64,000 nt of DNA from Escherichia coli (lineage in GTDB: Bacteria; Pseudomonadota; Gammaproteobacteria; Enterobacterales; Enterobacteriaceae), in assembly GCF_011045215.1 (NCBI RefSeq), contig NZ_CP049201.1. One strand, given 5' to 3'. A program made the translations under genes and the position numbers. Below are positions 16,580 to 17,373 of the stretch, in pieces; position 1 is the first letter of the stretch, and every line of letters starts with the position of its first letter. The notes below the pieces were generated by a model, which saw only the letters and a program-made list of their open reading frames with translations, was not told where the DNA came from and did no database searches.

Positions 16580-16619
16580 ATTTAATATCACCTAAAGAGA
16601 ATTTGGTTAGCTCAAACTG

Positions 16620-16886
16620 TTGTGTGGATTTTCTGTGGTAGCGGATCCTACCACGACTCTGCAGGTTAAAAACACTGGCAGTCTGAGTGTTAATCGGTAT
16701 GGATGGATTAACATCTGGATGGCTATTTTAGGTCAATTCTTCACCCGATTTCCACTTTTTTTTGAATCGTGTCTCATTCTGTTAAAAACGTGGCTGGAAA
16801 TTTTTCCTGACAATGCCGGCATTCTGCGTATTTATCTTTTGCAATTTTCTGCCATTGTGGGGTATAAAACGCGGCGCGCGGCTTAA
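16620..16886 (+). CDS. yqgD: Hypothetical small ORF in metK upstream region (yqgD-like; doubtful)
   Basis: ORF-track entry only; overlaps metK promoter/leader; position matches my recollection of the K-12 annotation. Confidence 0.2.
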
Positions 16887-17098
16887 ATAAAAAGCACACG
16901 ACGTTTCTTTCGTGTTGCCACTTCCAGCCGGGTTGAAATCAGAGTTTTGGCTTGTGGGTTCGTCTTAACAGGCGGCCGTGGAGGTGATACGAAATAATGA
17001 ACCGTTGTCTGCTGCTTAACCTGTCTCACCGTTCTGGTGAAGATTCGTTCCCCGCACTCTGCATCTCTGCTTTGCATACCTGCCGATGTTATACCCAT
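16883..17098 (-). CDS. yqgC: Hypothetical small ORF (yqgC-like; doubtful)
   Basis: 71-aa ORF between metK and speA; size matches my recollection of K-12 yqgC; no functional evidence. Confidence 0.2.
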
Positions 17099-17233
17099 CT
17101 CGGCGCTTCTCAGGATTCAAGAGCTGGTTACAGTTACTGAGGACTGAACAAGGGCGCTCTTGTAAAAACAAGAGTTTTCTCGTGGTTTCGCCGAACTGTC
17201 ACACTTACGTTCGGTTATGTGCTTAATAATGTT

Positions 17234-17365
17234 ATGAAAAAGAAACCGGTTGCGCAGTTGGAGCGTCAGCATTCACTGCTGGAAAATCCATGTGCTTATG
17301 GGTTGTTATCGCAGTTCCAGGCTGCGATAGTCGTTAACTGTTTTACACTTAATAAAATAATTTGA
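17234..17365 (+). CDS. yqgB: Small protein YqgB (43 aa) immediately upstream of speA
   Basis: Read directly: atg aaa aag aaa ccg ... [43 protein letters not shown]; below the ORF-track size cutoff. Confidence 0.65.
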
Positions 17366-17373
17366 GGTTCGCT

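Follow-up and report, generated by a model that had tools for sequence, protein, structure and literature searches.

Introduction

In classical translational coupling, such as that between trpE and trpD or between the MS2 coat gene and the genes downstream of it, the upstream stop overlaps or adjoins the next start, and a ribosome translating the upstream frame opens the structure that hides this start. In other systems the leader open reading frame (ORF) acts through its product: the peptides encoded ahead of speF and tnaA, SpeFL and TnaC, are sequence-specific sensors that arrest the ribosome depending on a ligand and gate Rho, in leaders of amino-acid or polyamine metabolism. The mdtU-mdtJI system of Escherichia coli, whose upstream ORF governs Rho termination in response to spermidine, combines a short translated ORF, a long leader and Rho termination with a polyamine-related operon (Adams et al. 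2021). Here we examine yqgB, a 43-codon ORF in the spacer between the divergent genes metK and speA, in a 64,000-nucleotide (nt) stretch of E. coli DNA (contig NZ_CP049201.1 of assembly GCF_011045215.1), which is called the window below and is numbered from its first letter. In our reading, yqgB is translated as a leader ORF and exerts its effect on speA in cis; we give this reading a probability of roughly 0.55.

Putrescine synthesis by the arginine route begins with speA. Expression of this gene is said to be repressed by polyamines and cyclic AMP (cAMP), as Moore and Boyle reportedly found in 1991. Both the yqgB gene and the idea of an upstream ORF for speA are already known from the literature. 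Adams et al. (2021; eLife, PMC7815308) cloned the segment that corresponds to 16876-17373 as the speA 5' untranslated region (UTR) and demonstrated Rho-dependent premature termination by reporter fusions and northern blots. They use the wording 'yqgG-yqgB-speAB transcript' and count yqgB-speA among nine uncharacterised candidate regulatory upstream ORFs. Their supplement places a Rho termination region at K-12 position 3086055, which is window 17240 at the yqgB start (score 3.69, p 9e-20). Among the 3' ends mapped by Term-seq in the same study, one is Rho-dependent and lies at K-12 3085854 (window 17441, that is, 67 nt past the A of the first speA ATG; Rho score 3.09, flagged 'uORF'), and another lies at window 17000. 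Two starts of speA, the annotated ATG and Met27 (17452), were described in the preprint of Meydan et al. (2019) and in later work and give rise to forms of 74 and 70 kDa; the Met27 start was also reported by INRI-seq. It has been shown in the literature that Rho terminates part of the transcripts around the yqgB start, and that yqgB can be translated. To this we add evidence suggesting that yqgB acts via its translation rather than via its product, a map of the leader helices, and a lead concerning yqgG.

An original prediction, made from the letters of this stretch, had pointed out the long spacer, the 43-codon ORF ending 8 nt before the speA ATG and an inverted repeat in the metK leader, and had taken the arrangement to suggest translational coupling or a leader-peptide role for speA. 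Direct reading confirmed all of these coordinates. The prediction had omitted the RefSeq-annotated yqgG, the Met27 start of speA (17452) and the RNA helices. The features on which the following comparison turns are:

17234-17365, plus strand: yqgB, 43 codons, ATG at 17234 and TGA at 17363-17365; Pfam PF11036 and a RefSeq gene
17374-19350, plus strand: speA, biosynthetic arginine decarboxylase, 658 codons from the first ATG (17374)
16876-17373, plus strand: speA 5' leader, 498 nt, with its limits given by the cloning primers of Adams et al. (2021), GCGCGGCTTAAATAAAAAGC and the reverse complement of 17346-17373
17441-17454, plus strand: second speA start, AGGAGG at 17441-17446 and the ATG of Met27 at 17452-17454, 78 nt past the first ATG

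Results

An open yqgB frame reaches the speA start

YqgB matches Pfam family PF11036 over its full length of 1-43 with 113.3 bits and an E value of 4e-33 (curated cut-off 24 bits). Searches for YqgB homologues nevertheless yielded little: a word-indexed search returned Escherichia clusters only, and an exhaustive search gave 14 matches, all of them Enterobacteriaceae-like or spurious. The comparison was therefore anchored on SpeA. It comprised 80 loci from different Enterobacteriaceae species, of which 78 contained the upstream region and, with the window, made up the 79 sequences to which the species counts below refer. At all 79 Enterobacteriaceae loci, as well as at six other Enterobacterales loci, yqgB lies directly upstream of speA and divergent from metK, and an ATG-initiated yqgB homologue begins about 140 nt upstream of speA in 79 of 79.

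In the window, 8 nt separate the yqgB stop from the speA ATG (GGTTCGCT), and the TGA overlaps the Shine-Dalgarno sequence of speA (T-GAGG). The yqgB frame is open in every one of the 79 species, compared with 0 and 5 for the other two frames, which carry 266 and 95 stops. Hence the openness of the yqgB frame is far beyond chance. The stop itself takes one of two forms, either the TGA inside TTGAGG, 8 nt before the speA ATG and overlapping the Shine-Dalgarno sequence (45 species), or the TGA of ATGTCTGA, 8 nt past the A of that ATG (34 species); both triplets are held in place by other constraints, namely the Shine-Dalgarno sequence and codons 2-3 of speA, so only the openness of the frame is informative and not the exact position of the stop. 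Single-base insertions or deletions (indels) in the A-rich tract before the Shine-Dalgarno sequence toggle yqgB between both stops, even within genera.

The length of yqgB ranges from 38 to 91 codons over the 79 species, through deletions and insertions of 20-128 nt, with no early closure of the frame and with 43 distinct C-terminal tails. After the insertions and the 1-nt indels, an open frame ending at the speA start was retained every time. Similarly, rare yqgB variants within E. coli that contain compensated frameshifts or an in-frame deletion retain the same ORF end. Beyond the Enterobacteriaceae, metK and speA are also divergent neighbours in Erwinia, Serratia, Dickeya, Yersinia, Mixta and Pectobacterium (six other families of Enterobacterales), where an open stretch of 40-68 codons leads up to the stop of ATGTCTGA.

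Two side observations concern the ends of the ORF. At loci L022, L036, L044, L051, L017 and L027/L028/L038/L040/L071, yqgB reaches 55-91 codons through the insertions that lie between its core and speA. At the other end, an in-frame GTG within GTGTTTTAC at 17219, five codons upstream of the yqgB ATG, is the start of an older 48-codon annotation. This GTG is conserved even in families without the yqgB ATG (Dickeya, Pectobacterium) and could be the start codon there.

The YqgB peptide is not under purifying selection

The amino-acid sequence of YqgB is without purifying selection. Its pN/pS (the ratio of nonsynonymous to synonymous differences) is 0.99 in its own frame, versus 0.85 and 0.63 in the shifted frames, and amounts to 1.14 for codons 9-22 and 1.19 for codons 23-39, all of these being pairwise values in which kinship is ignored. 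Mean column entropy at codon positions 1, 2 and 3 is 0.60, 0.65 and 0.56, respectively. For comparison, codons 27-39 of speA give entropies of 0.04, 0.02 and 0.51 and a pN/pS of 0.02. The nucleotides behind the YqgB residues that appear conserved, GLLS and AIVVNCFTL, do not vary even where a change would be synonymous. The original prediction had proposed the conservation of synonymous sites in yqgB as a check on its idea; peptide-level selection did not emerge from it, and the invariant synonymous sites of the conserved residues fall in predicted helix arms. These comparative data suggest that evolution retains the passage of ribosomes from the yqgB start to the speA start, and not the peptide.

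The same figures bear on the view that YqgB serves in trans as a small protein of the acid stress response, whose place next to speA reflects operon organisation only. RefSeq names it 'acid stress response protein YqgB', a Pfam family exists, YqgB is listed among experimentally validated small proteins, and codons 1-8 of yqgB have a pN/pS of 0.29. Deletion phenotypes at low pH have also been reported, in a 2026 paper on Salmonella. In the yqgB deletion, speA and speB mRNA and arginine decarboxylase were lowered, and killing of the mutant by colistin at low pH was reduced by added arginine, putrescine or spermidine. That paper regards the YqgB protein as a target for drugs that would restore colistin activity, and it reports the binding of ranitidine by surface plasmon resonance. 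However, the lowered speA/speB and the rescue from colistin by arginine or polyamines are explicable by a cis effect, and the word 'complement' is absent from the main text of the paper. As evidence on mechanism the lowered speA/speB is indirect, since effects on transcription, Rho and coupling are inseparable in such a deletion. A protein working in trans is also hard to match with a pN/pS of 0.99 overall and above 1 for codons 9-39, with lengths of 38-91 residues and 43 different tails, with the compensated frameshift variants of E. coli, and with conserved residues that coincide with RNA helix arms and are invariant at synonymous sites too. Moreover, YqgB overexpression in an arrest-peptide screen induced aggregation-type heat shock proteins and not an arrest-like cold shock response. 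The comparative data thus speak for a leader ORF coupled in cis to speA by translation rather than for an "acid stress protein" working in trans, and the latter we consider unlikely.

A further possibility is that YqgB belongs with TnaC, SpeFL and MdtU among the ribosome arrest peptides that sense a ligand, and stalls at its stop on arginine or polyamines. The setting would suit such a peptide, as yqgB is a short ORF in the leader of a polyamine gene that is subject to Rho attenuation, as a Rho-dependent 3' end is no more than 200 nt away, and as speFL and mdtU of the same pathway act in this way. Arrest, however, needs a defined sequence, especially at the C-terminus, whereas YqgB has 43 tails, two stop positions and a pN/pS of about 1, and its overexpression gave the heat shock rather than the cold shock response. 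We regard an arrest function of YqgB as very improbable. The two roles foreseen in the original prediction have consequently parted ways. A sequence-specific leader-peptide role of the arrest type is unlikely in view of the pN/pS of about 1, the 43 tails and the aggregation-type response. The cis role fits the open frame in 79 of 79 species, the helix H4 described below, the Rho data and a stop within 8 nt of the speA ATG.

Predicted conserved helices around the yqgB and speA starts

Helices were derived from RNAalifold consensus, single-sequence and local folds together with counts of compensatory changes for each pair. For all helices together, 97.8% of cells pair, compared with 28-51% when the partners are slid by 1-3 columns; the values for PL, H3 and H4 are 98-99%. 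The predicted helices, with folding free energies (dG) where calculated, are:

17151-17180, plus strand: H1 hairpin (core 17157-17162 with 17169-17174), then the invariant U-rich TTTTCTCGTGGTTTC
17191-17214, plus strand: H2 hairpin (17191-17196 with 17209-17214), CCGAAC with GTTCGG
17183-17189 with 17242-17248, plus strand: PL long-range helix, UGGUUUC with GAAACCG; from the RNAalifold consensus (98.9% pairing) and the single-sequence fold
17267-17281, plus strand: small hairpin, 97% paired
17301-17339, plus strand: H3 hairpin inside yqgB, GGUUG UUAUCGCA ... UGCGAUAG ... UAACU; dG -14.4 kcal/mol, z -2.9, 98-99% paired
17367-17382 with 17406-17419, plus strand: H4 helix, 14 pairs, 98.7% paired; local fold -21.2 kcal/mol, z -2.0
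17433-17436 with 17442-17445, plus strand: H5 helix, touching the Shine-Dalgarno sequence of the Met27 start

H4 encloses the first speA ATG and is present in the consensus as well as in the single-sequence predictions, and its variation consists of one-sided changes only, mostly pair-preserving. Both alternative yqgB stops are located at or inside its 5' arm, so that a ribosome finishing yqgB would have to open H4. Upstream, PL encloses H2 and the yqgB start codon, and its arms are almost invariant. The arms of H3 encode the "conserved" GLLS and AIVV, while its loop is variable, with a UUCG tetraloop in Salmonella, Citrobacter and Klebsiella. Compensatory changes were found in five of the six pairs of H1, a hairpin with a variable loop, a dG of -11.6 kcal/mol (z -3.8) and a terminator-like match, and in three of the six pairs of H2, for example CTGAAC/GTTCAG in Kluyvera.

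The predicted H4 would also explain the raised synonymous-site conservation at the 5' end of speA that was reported by Meydan et al. The 26 speA codons before Met27 (17374-17451) have a pN/pS of 0.53, versus 0.02 for codons 27-39, yet their nucleotides are strongly conserved. This pattern fits a partly regulatory role of the segment, which holds the 3' arm of H4 and H5.

Some structures lie apart from these helices or were discarded. Within region 17145-17190, CTGAACAAGGGCGCTC, H1 and the 15 nt after H1 (TTTTCTCGTGGTTTC) are almost invariant in the 79 species. H1 is A/U-rich and contains 3 G-C pairs, it continues into the tail UUUUCUCG, and the tables of Adams et al. contain no 3' end between 17000 and 17441; activity of H1 as an intrinsic terminator was therefore rejected. 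The long-range pairs of 17152-17155 with 17456-17459 and of 17294-17295 with 17345-17346 that RNAalifold proposed were dropped as unsupported. A scan of 16000-18000 on both strands with the covariance models of Rfam 15 gave no match at E values up to 1.

A mechanism in cis and the points against it

INRI-seq found the yqgB start to be used in vitro on a template with a 30-nt 5' UTR, and no peak was seen at yqgB in vivo (Ribo-RET). At the yqgB start this in vitro template is without the 5' arm of PL, a combination that may agree with PL limiting access to the start.

We propose that the yqgB start region is possibly closed by PL, which would make entry into yqgB the regulated step. Ribosomes that start on yqgB would run to the stop 8 nt before the first speA ATG or 8 nt past its A. 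Their translation would cover the RNA downstream of the Rho entry region and thereby counter Rho, and on finishing yqgB they would melt H4 around the first speA ATG. The same or a new ribosome could then start at this ATG and produce the long SpeA form, that is, by translational coupling. The YqgB peptide would be a by-product, with its seemingly conserved residues coming from the conserved helix arms.

Several points weigh against this mechanism, in addition to the fixed TGA triplets and to the pairwise pN/pS values that ignore kinship. The yqgB ATG, present in Serratia and Mixta, is replaced by ATA in Erwinia and absent in Dickeya, and yqgB of Yersinia ruckeri has an in-frame stop after the N-terminus. 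The low pN/pS of yqgB codons 1-8 is a coding-type signal. The first speA ATG shows an initiation peak in vivo, where none is seen at yqgB, and it is used in vitro on a template with a 30-nt 5' UTR, without the yqgB start but with H4. Initiation at this ATG thus does not require yqgB translation, and coupling is not obligatory. As to the helices, compensatory double changes occur only in H1 and H2, and none were seen in H4, PL and H3. Support for these three consists of invariance and wobble-compatible changes, some of them at synonymous speA sites, and the near invariance of the PL arms means that covariation evidence is absent for PL. H4 is kept in Erwinia but is less clear in Serratia, Yersinia and Pectobacterium.

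Some of these points would also be expected if the leader were a purely RNA-based element, with the yqgB frame open because the conserved RNA happens to contain no stops and with translation being incidental. The missing in vivo peak at yqgB and the missing ATG in Erwinia and Dickeya would then be readily understood, as would the at least five conserved helices and a strong nucleotide conservation without codon periodicity. The variable parts of yqgB (codons 9-22 and the A/T-rich tail), however, are unconserved as RNA and yet stop-free in 79 species, where the other frames carry 266 and 95 stops. In addition, the 20-128 nt insertions and the 1-nt indels never close the frame before the speA start, and in vitro the yqgB ATG does serve for initiation. 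An element of RNA alone appears distinctly unlikely to us, and a translated yqgB acting in cis remains our preferred reading.

yqgG as a possible sensor upstream of yqgB

The speA leader contains two small ORFs, yqgG followed by yqgB, while its opposite strand carries the metK promoter and the metK 5' UTR of about 140 nt. Two overlapping features are relevant here:

16997-17140, plus strand: yqgG, first upstream ORF of the speA leader, 47 codons; RefSeq; Pfam PF23505 with 129.9 bits; SPA-tagged protein (Weaver et al. 2019)
16996-17133, plus strand: C>G stretch and candidate rut region, C 31-33%, G 18-21%, C/G 1.4-1.7; coincides with yqgG

Start-site ribosome profiling led Weaver et al. (2019) to yqgG, and they showed the SPA-tagged protein. 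Unlike YqgB, YqgG has a C-terminal motif (…(S/T)QDSRAG) that is conserved at the peptide level and reaches to the stop codon or close to it. Codons 28-44 have a pN/pS of 0.34, versus 0.89 and 2.38 in the shifted frames, and the motif's Arg, Ser and Ala residues are encoded by varying synonymous codons; for codons 2-27 the value is 0.81. Arginine is encoded in an unusual manner. Arg30 is CGA in 74 of 75 species, and Arg42 is AGG (35), CGG (21), AGA (18) or CGA (1) in 75 of 75 and never CGT or CGC, although these two make up 2,779 of the 2,903 Arg codons (96%) in speA of the same genomes. YqgG of Serratia, Yersinia, Dickeya and Pectobacterium ends in …TQDSRAG with the stop directly after, and in these four further families, where YqgG retains the last Arg, its codon is again a rare one.

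The stretch 16996-17133 is the only one in the speA leader with C>G. Across the 79 species the median C/G of the yqgG ORF is 1.40, and 75 of them exceed 1.2. Judging from this composition, 16996-17133 is a candidate Rho loading (rut) region. The position of YqgG on the C-rich tract, its conserved C-terminal motif and its rare Arg codons led us to propose that the speA leader could be a two-ORF sensor, in which YqgG would sense arginine or a polyamine by decoding speed or arrest and gate Rho, with yqgB acting as a relay. The YqgG sensor would set whether Rho loads and terminates at yqgB, and yqgB would pass the surviving transcripts to the first speA start. We put this forward tentatively, as a proposal that is at present rather unlikely.

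Further observations were made within yqgG. In several genera yqgG terminates at the TGA of CTGAAC. Citrobacter portucalensis and Citrobacter sp. On2M (loci L058 and L077, about 2520-2650; between window positions 17095 and 17096) carry within yqgG an ERIC-like repeat about 125 nt long (…GTGACTGGGGCGAATGAGCG…), which parts the C-terminal motif from the start of the ORF. Local RNAalifold folds pair the yqgG Shine-Dalgarno sequence GUGGAGG (16978-16984) with the C-rich 17050-17055 inside yqgG, with variation that is mostly G-C to G-U. In the local folds only, a short helix of 17100-17106 with 17121-17127 was predicted, which could be an alternative source of part of the yqgG codon pattern. A three-segment attenuator, with CAAGAGC at 17118-17124 in yqgG competing with the 3' arm of H1 for GCTCTTG (inverted pair I8), was rejected because the segment is CCAGGGC or CCCGGGC in most genera, through synonymous changes that do not track H1.

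The spacer, the metK side and neighbouring genes

The divergent metK-speA spacer spans 794 bp (16580-17373), as read directly from the sequence. About 1.2 kb around yqgB is 100% identical to many complete E. coli genomes and is carried by 5,425 of 5,426. The remaining features of the region are:

15425-16579, minus strand: metK, methionine adenosyltransferase, ATG at 16579; from the ORF list and the RefSeq annotation of the identical E. coli region; left border of the spacer
16839-16868, plus strand: presumed speA promoter, TTGCAA at 16839-16844, 18 nt, TATAAA at 16863-16868; read from the sequence, conserved
16635-16641 and 16648-16654, minus strand: perfect 7-bp inverted repeat GTGGTAG/CTACCAC in the metK 5' UTR, about 55-75 nt upstream of the metK ATG
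16680-16740, minus strand: most conserved block on the metK side (conservation profile, 78 species), with a promoter-like match at 16754-16725
16635-16886, plus strand: yqgD ORF, 83 codons; RefSeq-annotated; overlaps the metK leader and promoter
16883-17098, minus strand: yqgC ORF, 71 codons; Pfam PF17430 match; antisense to the speA leader and yqgG

The presumed speA promoter ends 7 nt upstream of the first base of the 5' UTR fragment cloned by Adams et al. The speA leader has a hairpin roughly 20 nt from its 5' end, at 16896-16915 (ACACGA…TCGTGT). Read on the minus strand, this hairpin is terminator-like, is followed by GCTTTTTATTT and sits at the 3' end of the yqgC ORF.

The 7-bp inverted repeat in the metK 5' UTR is by itself not significant, as about 0.3 perfect repeats of this size with a short loop are expected by chance in 800 bp and nine inverted pairs were listed. 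A hairpin of different sequence is found at the same place in most genera (median dG -9.4 kcal/mol, median z -1.2), and 16635-16654 is probably a real stem-loop. The block at 16680-16740 is presumed, from its conservation, to be the metK promoter and operator. A search of the window for a tandem MetJ box (AGACGTCTAGACGTCT, up to 3 mismatches) gave no match, and the operator assignment hence rests on conservation only. The same block contains a perfect 8-bp inverted repeat, TGTTAATC/GATTAACA, at 16688-16713.

Neither yqgD nor yqgC is probably a real gene. Stops interrupt the yqgD frame, for which no Pfam family was matched, in one Escherichia species as well as in the majority of the other genera, and the yqgC frame is broken by stops in most genera. 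Furthermore, Weaver et al. (2019) observed no ribosome density on the antisense yqgC and did not detect the tagged YqgC. The doubt that had been cast on both ORFs at the outset was therefore well founded; their supposed overlap with the metK promoter applies to yqgD only, as yqgC is antisense to the speA leader and yqgG.

Downstream of speA, a 243-codon lipoprotein gene (19496-20227) lies between speA and speB. Of 5,426 complete E. coli genomes, 3,550 have this gene and the others lack it; in one strain it contains an IS1.

Discussion

Should yqgB act in cis, the label 'acid stress response protein' would reflect an indirect effect on speA, and the 2026 reading of the YqgB protein as a drug target would likewise go back to such an indirect effect. 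Were the two-ORF sensor true, it would be the missing mechanism for metabolite control of the biosynthetic arginine decarboxylase. The mapped helices and the two upstream ORFs offer defined targets for work on Rho attenuation, on coupling to the long SpeA form and on possible sensing by YqgG.

The peptide-level conserved C-terminal motif in this leader is that of YqgG and not that of YqgB. The SecM arrest motif is …GIRAGP, and YqgG, ending in …SQDSRAG, shares RAG with it; YqgG has no proline after RAG and its upstream spacing differs, so this is a resemblance only. Compared with speFL-speF and tnaC-tnaA, the speA leader likewise joins a leader ORF and Rho with amino-acid or polyamine metabolism, and it has a candidate Rho entry in or around a leader ORF. 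The SpeFL and TnaC peptides, however, are sequence-specific sensors, while YqgB shows neither peptide-level selection nor an arrest-like overexpression response.

The likeness between mdtU-mdtJI and yqgB-speA comprises a short translated ORF, a long leader, a polyamine-related operon and Rho termination (Adams et al. 2021). In contrast to YqgB, whose C-terminus is unconserved, MdtU is reported to need its conserved C-terminus for regulation. In addition, yqgB differs from mdtU in ending at the downstream start codon, and the speA leader has a second upstream ORF, yqgG.

From classical coupling, yqgB-speA is set apart by an upstream ORF of 38-91 codons without a selected product, by a second speA start and by a first ATG that is usable without yqgB. 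What it has in common with the classical cases is the closeness of the yqgB stop to the speA ATG, at most 8 nt in each of the 79 species, and the position of this ATG in a predicted helix of -21 kcal/mol.

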